DNA from: Escherichia coli
Lineage (GTDB): Bacteria; Pseudomonadota; Gammaproteobacteria; Enterobacterales; Enterobacteriaceae
Assembly: GCF_044324785.1 (NCBI RefSeq)
Contig: NZ_CP172127.1
Reading direction: 5' to 3' (one strand)
Length of the DNA stretch: 64,000 nt
A model generated the notes under the pieces. The model did no database searches. It worked only from the letters and a program-made list of their open reading frames with translations, and was not told the origin of the DNA. Positions 42,970 to 50,759 of this stretch are shown piece by piece. The number at the start of each line of letters is the position of its first letter. Within the stretch, counting starts at the first letter, position 1. Made by a program: the position numbers and the translations under genes.

Positions 42970-43758
42970 ATGCAAGTCGACCTGCTGAGTTCCGCGCAAT
43001 CTGCGCACGCGTTACACCTTTTTCACCAACATTCCCCTCTTGTGCACTGCATGACCAACGATGTGGTGCAAACCTTTACTGCCAATACCTTGCTGGCGCT
43101 CGGTGCATCGCCAGCGATGGTTATCGAAACCGAAGAGGCCAGTCAGTTTGCGGCTATCGCCAGTGCGTTGCTGATTAACGTTGGCACGCTGACGCAGCCA
43201 CGCGCACAGGCGATGCGTGCCGCCGTTGAACAGGCAAAACGCTCTCAAACACCCTGGACGCTTGATCCAGTAGCGGTTGGTGCACTCGACTATCGCCGCC
43301 GTTTTTGTCTGGAACTTCTGTCTCATAAGCCAACCGCCATACGTGGTAATGCTTCGGAAATCATGGCATTAGCTGGCATTGCTAATGGCGGACGGGGAGT
43401 GGATACCACTGACGCCGCAGCTAATGCGATACCCGCTGCACAAACACTGGCACGGGAAACTGGCGCAATCGTCGTGGTCACAGGCGAGGTGGATTATGTT
43501 ACCGATGGTCGTCGCACCGTTGTCATTCACGGTGGCGATCCGCTAATGACCAAAGTGGTAGGAACTGGCTGTGCATTATCGGCGGTTGTCGCTGCCTGTT
43601 GTACGCTACCAGGCGATACGCTGGAAAATATCGCATCTGCCTGTCACTGGATGAAACAAGCCGGAGAACGCGCAGTCGCCAGTAGCGAGGGGCCAGGCAG
43701 TTTTGTTCCACATTTCCTTGATGCGCTCTGGCAATTGACGCCGGAGGTGCAGGCATGA
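42970..43758 (+). CDS. thiM: Hydroxyethylthiazole kinase
   Basis: 262 aa ([30 protein letters not shown]...). Confidence 0.9.
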
Positions 43759-44555
43759 AACGAATTAACGCTCTGACGATTGCCGGTACTGATCCGAGTG
43801 GTGGTGCGGGGATTCAGGCCGATCTTAAAACCTTCTCGGCACTTGGCGCTTATGGTTGCTCAGTGATTACTGCACTGGTGGCGCAAAATACCCGTGGCGT
43901 ACAGTCGGTGTATCGCATTGAGCCTGATTTTGTCGCCGCCCAGCTCGATTCGGTGTTCAGCGATGTGCGAATCGACACCACTAAAATCGGTATGTTGGCG
44001 GAAACCGATATTGTTGAAGCGGTGGCAGAACGGTTGCAACGTTATCAGATCCAAAACGTGGTACTCGACACCGTTATGCTGGCAAAAAGCGGCGACCCAC
44101 TGCTTTCACCTTCGGCAGTTGCCACGCTACGCAGTCGATTATTGCCACAGGTTTCATTAATAACGCCAAACTTGCCCGAAGCAGCCGCCTTGCTCGACGC
44201 GCCACACGCGCGCACCGAACAGGAAATGCTGGAACAAGGGCGATCGCTGTTGGCGATGGGCTGTGGAGCAGTGCTAATGAAAGGTGGTCATCTGGATGAT
44301 GAGCAAAGCCCGGACTGGCTGTTTACCCGCGAGGGTGAACAACGGTTTACCGCACCGCGCATTATGACCCAAAACACCCACGGCACTGGTTGTACACTCT
44401 CTGCGGCGTTGGCTGCACTACGCCCGCGCCATACAAACTGGGCTGACACCGTACAGGAGGCAAAAAGCTGGCTTTCATCGGCGTTAGCCCAGGCCGACAC
44501 GCTGGAAGTTGGTCACGGTATTGGTCCGGTTCACCACTTCCACGCGTGGTGGTGA
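43755..44555 (+). CDS. thiD: Hydroxymethylpyrimidine / phosphomethylpyrimidine kinase
   Basis: 266 aa ([27 protein letters not shown]...); ATGA overlap with thiM. Confidence 0.9.
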
Positions 44556-44619: not shown

Positions 44620-45438
44620 ATGCAGCTTAGAATCACCAGTCGAAAAAAATTCACCGCTTTATTATGCGCTCTTGGGCTAATTTCCATCGTTGCAATTTAT
44701 CCGCGTCAGACGGTGAATTTTTTCTACTCGACAGCAATTCAGATTAAAGACTACATCCACTTCTACGGTTATCGCCCGGTTAAATCTTTCGCTATTCGCA
44801 TTCCTGCCAGTTACACCATTCATGGTATTGATGTTTCACGCTGGCAGGAGCGAATCGACTGGCAGCGTGTGGCAAAAATGCGCGATAACGGTATTCGCTT
44901 GCAGTTTGCCTTTATCAAGGCGACGGAAGGCGAAAAGCTGGTGGACCCCTATTTTTCGCGTAACTGGCAACTAAGCCGCGAAAATGGCCTGCTGCGCGGG
45001 GCGTATCATTATTTCTCCCCGTCGGTATCCGCTTCAGTTCAGGCGCGATTATTTCTGCAAACGGTGGATTTTGCCCACGGCGATCTCCCTGCCGTGCTGG
45101 ACGTAGAAGAACGGGGAAAATTATCGGCAAAAGAATTACGCAAGCGGGTAAGTCAGTGGCTAAAAATGGTCGAAAAACGCACGGGAAAAAAGCCGATTAT
45201 TTACTCAGGAGCCGTTTTTTATCACACCAATCTGGCGGGCTATTTCAATGAATATCCGTGGTGGGTGGCTCACTACTATCAACGTCGTCCGGACAATGAC
45301 GGCATGGCCTGGCGCTTCTGGCAGCATTCCGACCGTGGACAGGTAGATGGCATTAATGGTCCGGTGGATTTTAATGTGTTTAATGGCACGGTGGAGGAGT
45401 TGCAGGCATTCGTTGATGGGATTAAAGAAACGCCTTAA
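44620..45438 (+). CDS. yegX: Glycoside hydrolase family 25 (lysozyme-like) protein
   Basis: 272 aa from MQLRITSRKKF...; GH25 signature region GIDVSRWQ...DWQRV...FIKATEG; start among two close ATGs uncertain. Confidence 0.75.
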   Translation: MQLRITSRKKFTALLCALGLISIVAIYPRQTVNFFYSTAIQIKDYIHFYGYRPVKSFAIRIPASYTIHGIDVSRWQERIDWQRVAKMRDNGIRLQFAFIKATEGEKLVDPYFSRNWQLSRENGLLRGAYHYFSPSVSASVQARLFLQTVDFAHGDLPAVLDVEERGKLSAKELRKRVSQWLKMVEKRTGKKPIIYSGAVFYHTNLAGYFNEYPWWVAHYYQRRPDNDGMAWRFWQHSDRGQVDGINGPVDFNVFNGTVEELQAFVDGIKETP

Positions 45439-45489
45439 ATAAGAAGCGGTGATATACTCCCACCAGACTCCCTGGCAGGAAAAAGACAA

Positions 45490-46236
45490 ATGGAACAAGC
45501 GCATACCCAGCTGATTGCCCAACTGAACGAGCGTATTTTAGCGGCGGATAACACGCCGCTTTATATTAAGTTTGCCGAAACGGTAAAAAATGCCGTGCGC
45601 AGCGGGGTGCTGGAGCATGGCAATATTTTGCCCGGTGAGCGTGATTTAAGTCAGTTAACCGGCGTTTCGCGCATTACGGTGCGCAAGGCGATGCAGGCGC
45701 TGGAAGAAGAGGGCGTGGTGACGCGTTCGCGTGGTTACGGCACGCAGATCAACAACATCTTCGAATACTCGTTGAAAGAAGCGCGAGGTTTCTCTCAGCA
45801 GGTGGTATTGCGCGGGAAAAAGCCCGATACGCTATGGGTTAACAAGCGTGTCGTGAAATGTCCCGAAGAAGTCGCGCAGCAGCTAGCGGTCGAAGCAGGA
45901 AGTAATGTCTTTTTGCTTAAGCGTATTCGCTATGTCGATGAAGAAGCGGTATCAATTGAGGAATCGTGGGTTCCTGCGCATTTAATTCATGATGTTGATG
46001 CCATCGGAATTTCTCTTTATGACTACTTCCGCAGCCAGCACATTTACCCACAACGTACGCGTTCCCGCGTTAGCGCCCGGATGCCGGATGCCGAGTTTCA
46101 GTCACATATTCAGTTAGATAGCAAAATACCGGTGCTGGTGATCAAGCAAGTGGCGCTTGACCAACAGCAACGGCCTATTGAGTACAGCATCAGCCACTGT
46201 CGCAGCGATCTATACGTTTTTGTGTGCGAGGAGTAG
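45490..46236 (+). CDS. yegW: GntR-family (HutC-subfamily) transcriptional regulator
   Basis: 248 aa; N-terminal wHTH (LPGERDLSQLTGVSRITVRKAMQALEEEGVV) and UTRA-like C-terminus. Confidence 0.85.
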   Translation: MEQAHTQLIAQLNERILAADNTPLYIKFAETVKNAVRSGVLEHGNILPGERDLSQLTGVSRITVRKAMQALEEEGVVTRSRGYGTQINNIFEYSLKEARGFSQQVVLRGKKPDTLWVNKRVVKCPEEVAQQLAVEAGSNVFLLKRIRYVDEEAVSIEESWVPAHLIHDVDAIGISLYDYFRSQHIYPQRTRSRVSARMPDAEFQSHIQLDSKIPVLVIKQVALDQQQRPIEYSISHCRSDLYVFVCEE

Positions 46237-47175
46237 TTCCTCGCGCGTTGGCGCACAATCACCGCCCCGATGCCCGACAACCCACGACGCCACTGCATTG
46301 CCCAGTAATACGGCATCCGCCAGTGGCAGACCAGAGGCTAGCCCGGCAAGTACGCCACCTGCATGACTGTCGCCCGCCCCAATGGTGTCTACAACTTGCG
46401 TTGGAAATGCCGGAATGCAGCCAGAAGCGTCGTTGCTGAAATACCATGCGCCCTCTTTATCGAGACGAATGATCAACGGCGCGGCAAATTTCTCCTGCCA
46501 TTGCTTGCCAAGTGTTGTTATCTCTGCGGATAAAGCAAAACGTTCGGCGGCAATCTCAGCCTCCTGACGATTGAGTGATACTAAAGGTCGACAGGCCATG
46601 ATCCGCGCCAGCAATGCATCCGGGATATCGCCAATACGTGGGCCAAAATCGATAAACGGCGTCACGTCTTGCAGCTCTTCCAGCCATTCCACTAACAATT
46701 CGCCGCAGGGCGAGGCCAGTTGATAACCTGAAAAATAGAGCAGGCTGCCAGGCACAACGGCTAATCGCGCCAGCCACTGGCGATTCCACTGATTTTCCAC
46801 GCCGCTGAACGACATAAAAGTGCGTTCGCCATCCGGCTCAACCAGCGCCAGACACCAGCCGTTATCACCTTCGGCGTTATCGATCAGGCTGATTAAGCCC
46901 TCTTTTGCCATCCGGTTGCGAATAATCTCCGCCCACACCCCCTGACCGAGCGGCAAGGCGTTACCCGCTTCGATGCCGAGGCGCTTTAACGCCACGGCAA
47001 TATTCAGTGCGCAGCCGCCAACGTTAACGCTCTGCTGTTTCAGTTCGATATCGCACCCACGCCAGGGGAGGGCATAAGCGTCGGCGATCACATCAATGAC
47101 CGCCGCGCCAATCACCATAACTGGCTGACGCGTGGTTAATTCAGGCAGCAGCGTGTGTAATCGAGCGCCGCTCAT
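46210..47175 (-). CDS. yegV: PfkB/ribokinase-family sugar kinase
   Basis: 321 aa; GAGD motif (DTIGAGDSHAGG); 3' end overlaps yegW 3' end by 27 nt (convergent). Confidence 0.8.
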   Translation of the reverse strand: MSGARLHTLLPELTTRQPVMVIGAAVIDVIADAYALPWRGCDIELKQQSVNVGGCALNIAVALKRLGIEAGNALPLGQGVWAEIIRNRMAKEGLISLIDNAEGDNGWCLALVEPDGERTFMSFSGVENQWNRQWLARLAVVPGSLLYFSGYQLASPCGELLVEWLEELQDVTPFIDFGPRIGDIPDALLARIMACRPLVSLNRQEAEIAAERFALSAEITTLGKQWQEKFAAPLIIRLDKEGAWYFSNDASGCIPAFPTQVVDTIGAGDSHAGGVLAGLASGLPLADAVLLGNAVASWVVGHRGGDCAPTREELLLAHKNV

Positions 47176-48176
47176 ACCGCCTCCCGTTGTTGACGATATT
47201 TCGCCAGCGCCGTGGCATAGCGGTTGAAATCAAGCTGATTTACCGCATCCAGTTCCGTCTTTAACGCAGGATCGATTGCGTTAACGCCATGCAACGCGCC
47301 GCAAATTGCCGTCGCCATAGCACCGATGGTGTCTGTGTCGCCGCCAAGGTTAGCGCACAGGACGGCGCAACGGTTCGGGTCGGTTTGTGCCAGTTCAACC
47401 AGCGCAATGGCGCACGGAACGGACTCAATAGTGCTGGTACCTGCGCCAACGACCTGGTAAAGCTGTTCGCTGGCGGATTCGGTGCCGTCGGCATTGCGCA
47501 CAATTTTCAGCGCAATCTCCAGGCGCGCCGCCAGTGAGGCGCTGAAGGTGGTGATGCGTTTTTGCTGTGCATGTCGCGCAATCGAGGGTAGAGAATCAAC
47601 AATCGCTGACCAGCTTTCTCCGTCAATGGCACGGGAAATCGCCCATGCGATGACTACCGCCCCCGCAACCGCCAGATCGGATTTATGTGTCGGGCTGGAG
47701 GCCAGCGCCACATCATCAATAAAGGAATCAACATCACGCGCCGGAAGCAAACAACCTAATGGCGAGACGCGCATCGCTGCGCCGTTGGTCACGCCGTTAT
47801 TTTCCAGTTCAGCAACGGGTTTACCGTCGCGAATGGCGTTAAGCGCAATCTTCGAGGTCGGACCTAGTACGTTTTTGTTAAAGGCGTCGAAACGCAGCGC
47901 CCAGTCGAGAATATTACGCCCAATCAGATCTGGATCGATCTTGCCTTCACGTTCCAGTAACGCATCCGCCAGACACAGCGCCATCGAGGTATCGTCGGTG
48001 AATTCGGCGCGGTTAAAATAACAGGCTGCGTTATTCTCCTTTGGTCCAGGCAGAAAACGATCAATCCAGCCAAAGTGTGCTTTAACGCGGCTGCGTGGCC
48101 AAAGCTCGGAGGGCATCCCCATCGCATCCCCTAACGCCTGCCCATAAAGAGCACCGAGAATACGTTCTGTTTTCAT
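47172..48176 (-). CDS. yegU: ADP-ribosylglycohydrolase-family protein
   Basis: 334 aa; 4-nt overlaps with yegT and yegV. Confidence 0.8.
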   Translation of the reverse strand: MKTERILGALYGQALGDAMGMPSELWPRSRVKAHFGWIDRFLPGPKENNAACYFNRAEFTDDTSMALCLADALLEREGKIDPDLIGRNILDWALRFDAFNKNVLGPTSKIALNAIRDGKPVAELENNGVTNGAAMRVSPLGCLLPARDVDSFIDDVALASSPTHKSDLAVAGAVVIAWAISRAIDGESWSAIVDSLPSIARHAQQKRITTFSASLAARLEIALKIVRNADGTESASEQLYQVVGAGTSTIESVPCAIALVELAQTDPNRCAVLCANLGGDTDTIGAMATAICGALHGVNAIDPALKTELDAVNQLDFNRYATALAKYRQQREAV

Positions 48177-49450
48177 TTAACTTCCCCTTGTGTCAACGCA
48201 ATATCGCGATCATCGACCTTGATAGCCGTAATTTCGTTGTCGGATTCGCGGAAAAAAATCATGAACAGCACGGCGATAATGGCAATCATCACCGCGCCGA
48301 AAGTCCACATCCCGGACCAGTTGAAAGTCAGTCCGTTTACCGGTTCCTGATAAGCGAACATCTTTTCCATCATCACACCGCCAAGACGATAGCCGAGCAA
48401 ACTGCCGAAGCCCTGGCAGCAGAGCGTGATCAGCCCCTGCGCGGCGGTACGCATATGCACGGGGGCTTTTTTATCGACATAGATGTAAGCGGTAACGTAG
48501 TAAAAATCGTAACTTACGCCGTGCAGCAAAATGCCGAGGAACAATAACGCGTAGGTGAAATATTCATCCGCACTACCGTAAATAAAGAAGCCATAGCGGA
48601 TCGCAGCGGTGACCAGACCAAGTAATAATACCTTTTTGATACCAAAGCGTTTGGTAAAAAACGGCAATGCCAGCATAAAGAAGATTTCAGAGAACTGGCC
48701 GAGCGTCATCCAGCCGGTGGCGTTTTTCATGCCGACTTCTGTCAGATAACCGTTGGCAAAGATGTAATAGAACGCCAGTGGCATCGCAAACAGGAATGAA
48801 CAGAAGAAAAAGACGAGGAAGTTTTTATCGCGCAGCAGGATCAGCGCATCCAGGCCGAGCATGACTTTAATGTCCATTTTGCCGGTGCTTTTTGGCGGCG
48901 TGTCGGGCAGGAAAAACGCAAACACAGCGAGCAGAGCAGAACTTCCGGCGGTAATCAGCAGCGGGATGTTAGTCGGTGAGATATCGGCATACCCCAGCAT
49001 TTGCGGCAAAAATCCACATGCCAGACCGGAGGCAATCCAGCCGATAGTGCCCATCACACGAATGCGTGGGAAATCACGCTCAACATCCGGCACGTTGGCA
49101 AAAGCGATACTGTTAGTCAGCGCAATGGTCGGCATATAGGTTAGCGAGTAGGCCAGCAGTAACGGGAAGAACCCGGCAAAAGTGGTCTGTTGCGCAGCGA
49201 AATACATCAGCGCCGCACCAGCGAACATCAATACCGCCAGCACTTTCTGCGCCGAGAAAAAGCGGTCAGTGATGGAGCCAACCAGAATTGGCGACAGGAT
49301 CGCCGCAATGGCGGTACAGGCATACGACCAGCCAATTTCTCCGGCACTAAAACCGCTTTTACTTAACCACAACCACAATGGCACAAACCACGCGCCCCAG
49401 ATAAACCATTCAACAAACATCATGAACGACAGCTTTGCTGTTGTTTTCAT
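48173..49450 (-). CDS. yegT: MFS nucleoside:H+ symporter-family transporter
   Basis: 425 aa, 12-TM-like hydrophobicity. Confidence 0.8.
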   Translation of the reverse strand: MKTTAKLSFMMFVEWFIWGAWFVPLWLWLSKSGFSAGEIGWSYACTAIAAILSPILVGSITDRFFSAQKVLAVLMFAGAALMYFAAQQTTFAGFFPLLLAYSLTYMPTIALTNSIAFANVPDVERDFPRIRVMGTIGWIASGLACGFLPQMLGYADISPTNIPLLITAGSSALLAVFAFFLPDTPPKSTGKMDIKVMLGLDALILLRDKNFLVFFFCSFLFAMPLAFYYIFANGYLTEVGMKNATGWMTLGQFSEIFFMLALPFFTKRFGIKKVLLLGLVTAAIRYGFFIYGSADEYFTYALLFLGILLHGVSYDFYYVTAYIYVDKKAPVHMRTAAQGLITLCCQGFGSLLGYRLGGVMMEKMFAYQEPVNGLTFNWSGMWTFGAVMIAIIAVLFMIFFRESDNEITAIKVDDRDIALTQGEVK

Positions 49451-49706
49451 CTTTTAATTCCTTCATGACAGGTAATGTAAGGTACGCTATGACAATACCA
49501 CTTAATAATACCTTTTAAATACCTTTGCGGTGAAAACTTGACCGTGCTAACATTTTTTTTGATGAATCGAGCCAACAGAAAACGCTGAAAAAACATCCAA
49601 AAGATGGAAAAACTCGCCCGTAACGACCAGGATTATGATTGCCCGCAAAAGGCGGGCCAGGACAATCCATAGCCGATATCCAATCGGAATTTACGGGAGC
49701 ATAGTA

Positions 49707-50759
49707 ATGACAGATATTGCGCAGTTGCTTGGCAAAGACGCCGACAACCTTTTACAGCACCGTTGTATGACTATTCCTTCTGACCAGCTTTATCTCCCCG
49801 GACATGACTACGTAGACCGCGTGATGATTGACAATAATCGCCCGCCTGCGGTGTTACGTAATATGCAGACGTTGTACAACACCGGGCGTCTGGCTGGCAC
49901 AGGATATCTTTCTATTCTGCCCGTTGACCAGGGCGTTGAGCACTCTGCCGGAGCTTCATTTGCCGCTAACCCGCTCTACTTTGACCCGAAAAACATTGTT
50001 GAACTGGCGATCGAAGCGGGCTGTAACTGTGTGGCGTCAACTTACGGCGTGCTGGCATCGGTATCGCGGCGTTACGCGCATCGCATTCCATTCCTCGTCA
50101 AACTTAATCACAACGAGACGCTAAGTTACCCGAACACCTACGATCAAACGCTGTATGCCAGCGTGGAGCAGGCGTTTAACATGGGCGCGGTGGCAGTTGG
50201 TGCGACTATCTATTTTGGCTCGGAAGAGTCACGACGCCAGATTGAAGAAATTTCTGCGGCTTTTGAACGTGCGCACGAGCTGGGCATGGTGACAGTGCTG
50301 TGGGCCTATTTGCGTAACTCCGCCTTTAAGAAAGATGGCGTTGATTACCATGTTTCCGCCGACCTGACCGGTCAGGCGAACCATCTGGCGGCAACCATAG
50401 GTGCAGATATCGTCAAACAAAAAATGGCGGAAAATAACGGCGGCTATAAAGCGATTAATTACGGTTATACCGACGATCGAGTCTACAGCAAACTGACCAG
50501 TGAAAACCCGATTGACCTGGTGCGTTATCAGTTAGCTAACTGCTATATGGGCCGGGCCGGGTTGATAAACTCCGGCGGTGCTGCAGGCGGTGAAACTGAC
50601 CTCAGCGATGCAGTGCGTACTGCGGTTATCAACAAACGCGCAGGCGGAATGGGGCTGATTCTTGGACGTAAGGCGTTTAAGAAATCGATGGCTGACGGCG
50701 TGAAACTGATTAACGCCGTACAGGACGTTTATCTCGATAGTAAAATTACTATCGCCTGA
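49707..50759 (+). CDS. fbaB: Class I fructose-bisphosphate aldolase
   Basis: 350 aa from [38 protein letters not shown]...; ATG at 49707 after GGGAGC. Confidence 0.9.

Follow-up and report, generated by a model that had tools for sequence, protein, structure and literature searches.

The window analysed here, a stretch of 64,000 nucleotides of Escherichia coli DNA, carries the yegTUV operon and, converging on it from the other strand, the gene yegW, which encodes the repressor GgaR. On the combined evidence of protein families, gene neighbourhoods and published experiments, we lean towards the view that yegTUV, kept under control by this repressor, serves the uptake and cleavage of a non-canonical ribosyl (nucleoside-like) compound. 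The operon is among the conserved operons of E. coli without a known substrate. Gene order, gene overlaps and control by yegW are already known from the reference annotation and a paper of 2024. New are the evidence from pairing and fusion of the two enzymes, a predicted operator, the conservation of a 27-nt overlap between yegV and yegW in 40 species, and a candidate hairpin that lies antisense to yegW. The specificity controls behind the published connection of this locus with ADP-glucose and glycogen are thin. The question becomes directly testable through the comparative results, as they deliver a defined operator, evidence for a hydrolase and a kinase acting in one pathway, and a list of excluded substrates.

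The YegU and YegV pair and its transporters

A hydrolase with the ADP-ribosyl hydrolase (ARH) fold and a PfkB kinase form a conserved pair, encoded by overlapping or adjacent genes, whose range extends from Gammaproteobacteria to Firmicutes. Searched against 1.84 billion cluster representatives, YegU had 237 relatives at E<=1e-30. Among the closest of these, Pfam identified fusion proteins of 600-760 residues in both orders, ARH-PfkB and PfkB-ARH. For the analysis of conservation, 80 loci were fetched from other species, together with a YegU family alignment, and their genes were called by BLASTP anchoring. Two architectures are seen. One consists of yegT (NHS family), yegU and yegV with the regulator gene convergent or downstream. 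The other combines a divergent GntR/UTRA regulator adjoining yegU with an NCS1 transporter and yegV, and occurs in Aeromonas, Serratia, Lonsdalea, Chromobacterium, Endozoicomonas, Paenibacillus, Oceanobacillus and several metagenomic contigs. The yegU-yegV pair is kept in 31 of 37 diverse loci, and clustering of the neighbours in these 37 loci revealed no further conserved enzyme; only the functions of U, V, W and the transporter recur. The fusions, the conserved pairing and the transporter families together argue that hydrolase and kinase belong to a single short pathway, whose starting compound is imported and is of a type handled by nucleoside or nucleobase transporter families. Beyond YegU and YegV, this pathway requires no other dedicated enzyme.

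YegU, the product of the second operon gene (47172-48176, minus strand, 334 aa; ORF list and Pfam), is a full-length ADP_ribosyl_GH protein (PF03747, 2.2e-66). Its AlphaFold2 model (pLDDT 97) points to an ARH fold with an intact two-metal site. The best Foldseek match of the model is MJ1187 (TM 0.82), followed by ARH3 and DraG (TM 0.75-0.79). Across 22 family members, the residues E24, T60, D61, D62, D280, D282 and T283 of the metal site are either invariant or conserved to at least 90%, and they align with the ARH3 motifs Glu, Thr-Asp-Asp and Asp-x-Asp-Thr. YegU stays below the NCBIfam equivalog cutoffs for DraG (79.7 vs 337) and Tri1 (69.1 vs 490). Sequence and fold searches of the PDB with YegU found only the uncharacterised MJ1187 and protein-directed ARHs, and gave no clue to a substrate.

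The third operon gene, yegV (46210-47175, minus strand, 321 aa; ORF list and Pfam), encodes a PfkB kinase (PF00294, 3.2e-56), in whose translation the motifs VGG (GG), NRQE (NxxE) and DTIGAGD can be read. The best NCBIfam match is the ribokinase model TIGR02152 with 82.9 bits against a cutoff of 299.65, and NF008353 scores 61.6 against 341. Since these equivalog cutoffs are not reached, YegV should not be filed as a ribokinase, and its specificity was still treated as unknown in a paper of 2025. For YegU, YegV and the NCS1 transporters alike, the NCBIfam equivalogs provided no specific function. A paper on Salmonella RikA concerns a different PfkB kinase, STM3547. A literature search linking ARH, PfkB and nucleoside found nothing.

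YegT, encoded by the first operon gene (48173-49450, minus strand, 425 aa; ORF list and Pfam), is an NHS-family MFS proton symporter (Nuc_H_symport, PF03825, 1.7e-183). With 653 bits against a cutoff of 446.1 for TIGR00889, it belongs to the NHS family by sequence. Its crystal structure has been published by Xiao et al. 2025 (PMC11979927). Isothermal titration calorimetry in the same study revealed binding of none of uridine, adenosine, cytidine and guanosine, and the four residues with which NupG contacts uridine are not conserved in YegT (Xiao et al. 2025, PMC11979927). Uptake of gemcitabine, uridine, cytidine or xanthosine by YegT was not observed either (Botou et al. 2024). The canonical nucleosides of these published assays are excluded as YegT substrates.

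A first-pass annotation of this DNA had described the genes as transporter, ADP-ribosylglycohydrolase-like, PfkB-kinase and GntR-family genes, which is upheld by the Pfam and NCBIfam matches, and had proposed a nucleoside-like salvage pathway. The latter proposal is a reasonable hypothesis. It is supported by the NHS and NCS1 transporters and by an occasional DeoD-type neighbour. The negative results for YegT on transport and binding of the canonical nucleosides tested speak against the simple version of such a pathway. The effector published for GgaR is ADP-glucose, and the phenotype described is an accumulation of glycogen.

Single loci have further neighbours. Locus L006 has a gene for a DeoD-type purine nucleoside phosphorylase directly next to the module, and in L005 a gene of the PNP_UDP_1 family is found close by; an isochorismatase gene is found in L014 and a TenA gene in L010. 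The idea of a nicotinamide riboside or thiamine-related substrate was dropped, since these single-locus neighbours are too sporadic to name one.

The module itself also varies. In Vibrio and Photobacterium the regulator gene shares the strand of the other genes, from which a further transporter gene separates it. This MFS gene between yegV and the co-directional regulator (L059, 8025-9260, with equivalents in L058, L062 and L064; Vibrio, Photobacterium, Thalassolituus) matches the 'L-lactate MFS transporter' model in Vibrionaceae with 427 bits against a cutoff of 320. Reduced modules (L069, L075, L076, L066, L072, L071) are present in Edwardsiella, Serratia marcescens, Brenneria and Lonsdalea; they comprise either yegU and a convergent regulator without yegV, often also without yegT, or yegT, yegU and the regulator without the kinase. 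Two copies of the module per genome were detected in Photobacterium sanctipauli (L058/L081), Lonsdalea quercina (L071/L082) and Brenneria sp. (L055/L072). In Photobacterium and Lonsdalea an NHS transporter accompanies one copy; the second copy has an NCS1 transporter, and its operator repeat is different. The presence of NHS and NCS1 copies in one genome suggests two related substrates.

GgaR and its predicted operators

YegW (45490-46236, plus strand, 248 aa; ORF list and Pfam) shows HutC architecture, with a GntR winged helix (PF00392, 3.1e-16) and a C-terminal UTRA domain (PF07702, 1.8e-36), and the closest solved structure is NagR/YvoA (4.2e-22). In the RefSeq annotation of K-12 its product is already named 'DNA-binding transcriptional regulator GgaR'. 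The protein was renamed GgaR by Saito et al. 2024, who observed a single ChIP-chip peak genome-wide (PMC10819704). In electrophoretic mobility shift assays (EMSA), the best GgaR binding was obtained with a probe for the 190 bp upstream of yegT. Binding was weaker to a probe of yegT open reading frame (ORF) positions 571-869, a region that is also covered by a second shoulder of the ChIP signal (PMC10819704). The yegTUV genes are transcribed as one mRNA of ~3.3 kb, visible only in the ggaR knockout, in which yegTUV is ~30-fold derepressed and fbaB is unaffected (PMC10819704). In gel shifts, GgaR is released by 10-100 uM ADP-glucose, but not by ADP or glucose (PMC10819704). In the knockout the glycogen content is 2-3 times higher, and growth in minimal glucose medium is poor (PMC10819704). 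Control of yegTUV by yegW, as proposed in the first-pass annotation, is thus correct and was already published on the basis of ChIP-chip, EMSA, Northern blotting and the derepression (PMC10819704); GgaR is a repressor with yegTUV as its single target (PMC10819704).

The knockout used in the GgaR study is Keio strain JW2088. The standard Keio design is said to retain only the last six codons and the stop codon of the target gene, i.e. 21 nt. Given the 27-nt overlap of yegW with yegV, an allele of this type would remove the last codon and the stop codon of yegV. A yegW deletion made by the usual design is likely to change the 3' terminus of yegV as well, so that phenotypes of such knockouts are harder to interpret.

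The report of Saito et al. contains no GgaR binding motif (PMC10819704). From sequence comparison we predict that the GgaR operator is the direct repeat GGTATT-N5-GGTATT. The predicted primary operator O1 (49481-49526, minus strand) comprises three direct GGTATT half-sites followed by an inverted GGTAC: an exact tandem repeat, GGTATTTAAAAGGTATT, at 49507-49523, a third half-site copy at 49494-49500 and the inverted GGTAC at 49481-49485. The core has a period of 11 bp and overlaps a -10-like TATTAT at 49505-49510. Across 21 genera of Enterobacteriaceae the block AAAGGTATTTAAAAGGTATTATTnnnTGGTATnnTnnnnnnGTACC upstream of yegT is nearly invariant, whereas the flanking spacer diverges. The GGTATT tandem repeat is also located upstream of yegT in Erwinia, Pantoea, Budvicia, Providencia, Hafnia, Rahnella, Vibrio and Photobacterium.

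Within the 64-kb window, GGTATT-N5-GGTATT has one exact match, O1, and one match with a single mismatch, which we predict as auxiliary operator O2 (GGTATCAAAAAGGTATT, 48627-48643, minus strand). O2 lies inside the yegT ORF at nt 808-824, codons G270-L275. O1 falls within the 190-bp probe with the strongest GgaR binding and O2 within the more weakly bound yegT 571-869 probe. The sequence of O2 encodes the conserved peptide GIKKVL, and it is exact in 13 of 45 species and has at most one mismatch in 27 of 45. The codons used for this peptide are biased to the motif, with GGT in 33 of 45 species (11.7 expected), GTA in 25 (7.4) and TTR in 31 (9.8); because the species are not independent, this skew is only suggestive.

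The conserved sites do not form a palindromic operator of the TGGTnT/AnACCA type; they resemble it in the half-site, which is repeated here in direct orientation. A motif search in the 64-kb window detected no GGTATT-type operator upstream of yegW, in accordance with the one peak seen in ChIP and with a GgaR level that stays constant. Loci of the NCS1 architecture have another tandem repeat, TGGAYT-N5-TGGAY, also with a period of 11 bp, in the spacer between regulator and yegU; it is found there in 9 loci, with 2 matches elsewhere.

Upstream of the yegT promoter, between the promoters of yegT and fbaB, a CRP-like site (TGTTAGCACGGTCAAG, 49537-49552, minus strand) is conserved in the alignment of the spacer as TGTTA-N4-G-N-TCA, with the half-sites TGTTA-N6-TCAAG. 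It resembles the CRP site 'fbaB<CRP>yegT' reported from SELEX (systematic evolution of ligands by exponential enrichment; PMC3105977).

The same spacer contains at 49630-49668, 40-75 nt before the fbaB start at 49707, the inverted repeat GGATTATGATTGCCCGC / GCGGGCCAGGACAATCC. The GC-rich hairpin at the core of this repeat is conserved in Enterobacteriaceae, its loops being variable; it is flanked by conserved CAGGA/ACCAGG motifs and shows apparent compensatory changes (GCCCGC..GCGGGC, GCCTG..CAGGC, GCCGG..CCGGC, GCCC..GGGC). RNAalifold on the gapped alignment gave no consensus for it, and no Rfam match was obtained. This element may belong to the 5' untranslated region of fbaB. The mechanically called fbaB ORF (49635-50759, 374 aa) begins further upstream than the K-12 protein of 350 aa, which corresponds to the ATG at 49707 (49707-50759). 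The start at 49635 is probably not the real one, and the longer ORF would cross the conserved hairpin.

Gene overlaps and a candidate hairpin antisense to yegW

The first-pass annotation had noted 4-nt overlaps within the operon and a 27-nt convergent overlap with yegW. The former are exact to the base according to the ORF list, direct reading of the sequence and K-12: yegT and yegU share an ATGA at 48173-48176, and yegU and yegV share one at 47172-47175, both on the minus strand. At each junction the TGA stop of the upstream gene sits within the ATG of the next. Shine-Dalgarno sequences can be read directly before yegU (AGGGGA, 48183-48188, minus strand, inside yegT) and before yegV (GGGAGG, 47180-47185, minus strand, inside yegU). 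As AAGGGGAA and CGGGAGG, internal to the upstream genes, they are conserved across Enterobacteriaceae. The spacing of yegT and yegU is -4 in 32 species, and the yegU/yegV overlap is present in all yegT-type loci. Overlaps of the ATGA type are the commonest prokaryotic class and are associated with translational coupling (PMC6728339, PMC10666635). They are thus ordinary in kind, and in K-12 the neighbouring thiM/thiD pair also shares a 4-nt overlap; thiD is located just past yegX in the window (43755-44555). The two overlaps together with the conserved internal Shine-Dalgarno sequences make translational coupling at both junctions plausible, and with the single mRNA of 3.3 kb known from the literature the locus has the features of a coupled operon.

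The geometry is identical in RefSeq K-12 (2178821-2180098, 2180095-2181099, 2181096-2182061 and complement 2182035-2182781), and the locus was found in 5,424 of 5,426 complete E. coli genomes. Compared with K-12, each of the four genes differs by 1-6 amino-acid changes against 11-25 nucleotide changes, which indicates purifying selection on all four. The region 45400-49700 of the window is 97.3% identical to K-12, and the best of the 5,426 genomes reaches 99.0%; the lineage of the window is hence distant from K-12 and from most sequenced E. coli strains.

The coding regions of yegV and yegW, on opposite strands, share their terminal 27 nt at 46210-46236 in a tail-to-tail arrangement, as is borne out by the ORFs, the sequence and the K-12 annotation. 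Both frames are in codon register, so that each TAG stop complements a CTA Leu codon of the other gene. A value of exactly -27 was found in 40 enterobacterial species with YegV identities down to 63%, and the genera include Escherichia, Citrobacter, Salmonella, Enterobacter, Raoultella, Kluyvera, Buttiauxella, Cedecea and Pectobacterium. The corresponding value is -14 in Erwinia/Pantoea and -4 in Tatumella, and the gap is positive in Budvicia, Providencia, Brenneria and Gilliamella. Terminators thus have no room between the two genes in the window. The pair yegV-yegW is on the ExcludonFinder list of E. coli gene pairs with overlapping transcripts, which is derived from RNA-Seq coverage (PMC12288877).

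On the yegTUV strand, the 140 nt past the yegV stop fold with z = -4.5 against shuffled sequence. A candidate 3' end or terminator hairpin of yegTUV is located at 46121-46174 (minus strand), with the stem at 46128-46174 followed by AUUUUGC, antisense within the coding region of yegW. The hairpin at 46128-46174 also forms in nearly all of 31 species, with a variable U-tract. In the gap-free alignment 89% of the cells are paired and 3 pairs carry compensatory changes, and the covariation score was matched by 7 of 500 shuffles. As the region also encodes YegW, and given the stated false-positive rates of the covariation tool, this evidence for a terminator is suggestive only. A transcript of yegTUV terminated at this hairpin would measure ~3.4 kb, close to the Northern band of 3.3 kb (PMC10819704). 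Another hairpin at the yegW stop, GCGAGGA/TCCTCGC (46226-46244), has a left arm that is not conserved in other genera and was taken as chance. A scan of 45000-50000 against Rfam at E<=1 matched no known RNA family.

With an overlap of 27 nt and no intergenic terminator, induced transcription of yegTUV is expected to run antisense into at least the last ~110 nt of yegW. Such transcription could reduce the synthesis of the repressor and so sharpen induction.

Pathway model, alternatives and known systems

In the uptake-and-cleavage model, GgaR would silence yegTUV by binding to the GGTATT array over the promoter, aided by the intragenic site 880 bp downstream. An inducer bound at the UTRA domain would free GgaR from the DNA; for this role a phosphorylated intermediate of the pathway, or a molecule similar to an ADP-sugar, is more probable than ADP-glucose. 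The single mRNA would then be translated with coupling at the two ATGA junctions. YegT would import the non-canonical ribosyl compound, YegV would phosphorylate either this compound or the ribose released from it, and YegU would cleave the linkage at the ribosyl C1, with ribose 5-phosphate and an aglycone as products. To our knowledge, all known ARH substrates carry a 5-phosphorylated ribose. For this reason, and because of the parallel to PsuK acting before PsuG, an order with the kinase first and the hydrolase second is slightly favoured.

Several points weigh against this model. In Edwardsiella, Serratia marcescens and Brenneria, yegU and yegW are kept without yegV, for which an order with the hydrolase first fits better than kinase-first. 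The characterised ARH enzymes that we know of act on ADP-ribosyl linkages and not on simple ribosides. No enzymatic assay of YegU or YegV was found in the literature searched. The GgaR operator is a sequence-based prediction. Neither ADP-glucose, the sole effector published so far, nor the glycogen phenotype of the literature is explained directly by the model. In addition, the level of GgaR protein is constant through growth (PMC10819704), which lends no support to an antisense feedback under those conditions. We are more doubtful of the wider claim that YegU and YegV represent a widespread route, often carried by one fused protein, which joins an ARH-fold hydrolase of imported small-molecule (phospho)ribosides, a tandem-repeat HutC operator with an intragenic site, and feedback by antisense overlap. 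We know of no description of (phospho)riboside hydrolysis as an activity class of the ARH fold.

According to the published interpretation, GgaR senses ADP-glucose, and the products of yegTUV raise the supply of ADP-glucose by import or production. Apart from the release of GgaR from its probe by ADP-glucose, and not by ADP or glucose, and the glycogen content of the knockout (PMC10819704), it can draw on an increase of yegTUV mRNA of ~3-fold at 1% vs 0.25% glucose, which is GgaR-dependent (PMC10819704), and on a yegV deletion reported to lower glycogen (PMC10819704, citing Almagro et al.). We nevertheless regard it as unlikely. An ARH hydrolase and a PfkB kinase offer no evident path to ADP-glucose, the same enzyme pair is also found with NCS1 nucleobase-type transporters, and none of the 37 diverse clustered loci adjoins glg genes. 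The specificity controls covered only ADP and glucose, and not ADP-ribose, other nucleotide sugars or ribose phosphates. Moreover, the 3-fold induction by glucose contrasts with 30-fold derepression in the knockout, which grows poorly in minimal medium, and slow growth by itself increases glycogen. Still less probable, in our judgement, is that YegU is a true ADP-ribosyl hydrolase whose substrate derives from NAD inside the cell. Examples would be O-acetyl-ADP-ribose and ADP-ribosylated proteins or small molecules, and kinase and transporter would then serve downstream products or export. The fold and the complete metal site, common to ARH3, DraG and Tri1, would fit, as would the fact that the effector in vitro is an ADP-sugar. 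However, the tight coupling and the fusions with an importer-type symporter and a sugar/nucleoside kinase indicate catabolism of an imported molecule, an ADP-ribosyltransferase partner is found in none of the 37 diverse loci, and the nearest solved relative is the uncharacterised MJ1187 and not ARH3. The segment aligned to what we take to be the adenine-contacting residues of ARH3 is shortened and substituted in YegU.

A further alternative concerns the overlaps only and is compatible with the uptake-and-cleavage model. It is quite possible that they are a compaction fixed by double coding constraint, without regulatory function, and that the GgaR promoter alone sets expression. Overlaps of -4 are the commonest class genome-wide, thiM/thiD being a case in point, and relatives have positive gaps (+13 to +144 for yegT/yegU, +7 to +165 for yegV/yegW) or a divergent regulator. 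The constant GgaR level is in line with this as well. Any change in the in-register antisense overlap alters both proteins, which is enough alone to explain its fixed length. On the other hand, the yegU/yegV overlap persists in all yegT-type loci and is accompanied by conserved Shine-Dalgarno sequences, overlapping transcripts of yegV and yegW were detected (PMC12288877), and a conserved hairpin lies antisense in yegW.

Returning to the uptake-and-cleavage model, its components can be compared with several known systems. YegU shares the all-helical ARH fold and the two-metal site (E, TDD, DxDT) with ARH3, DraG, Tri1 and MJ1187. ARH3, DraG and Tri1 release ADP-ribose from proteins or polymers and, unlike YegU, are not partnered with a kinase or a transporter. 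In excludons, as in the candidate pair yegV-yegW, 3' ends converge and overlap, and the pair is listed by ExcludonFinder (PMC12288877); here the overlap includes 27 nt of coding sequence of both genes. GgaR has the winged helix and UTRA architecture in common with the HutC-subfamily members NagR/YvoA, DasR and PhnF, which are local repressors released by a phosphorylated metabolite of their pathway. The half-sites are similar, GGTATT for GgaR and TGGTCT in the dre sites of NagR/DasR (PMC4333415, PMC2853113, PMC4398421). The operators of NagR and DasR are palindromic (TGGTCTAGACCA), whereas for GgaR we predict direct repeats that recur every 11 bp, together with an auxiliary site 880 bp downstream inside yegT.

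In the xapABR/NupG system, a transporter gene is likewise paired with nucleoside-cleaving enzymes under a dedicated regulator. NupG belongs to the same NHS family as YegT and has the same fold and GxxxD protonation site (PMC11979927). The two transporters are only ~27% identical, the four uridine-contacting residues of the cavity are not conserved in YegT and no canonical nucleoside is bound by it (PMC11979927). The partner enzyme in xapABR is a phosphorylase, while those of yegT are an ARH hydrolase and a PfkB kinase.

The psuT-psuK-psuG genes of E. coli (yeiM-yeiC-yeiN) resemble yegTUV in combining a nucleoside transporter, a PfkB-family kinase and a glycosidase for a non-canonical nucleoside. 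In this pathway the glycosidase cleaves a 5'-phosphorylated riboside into ribose 5-phosphate and the base. The psu system differs in that PsuG is unrelated to the ARH fold, the transporter is of the CNT instead of the NHS family, and the substrate is known; for yegTUV, the order of the YegV and YegU reactions is one that we infer. Uridine, cytidine and xanthosine were not taken up by PsuT, as was also observed for YegT (Botou et al. 2024).

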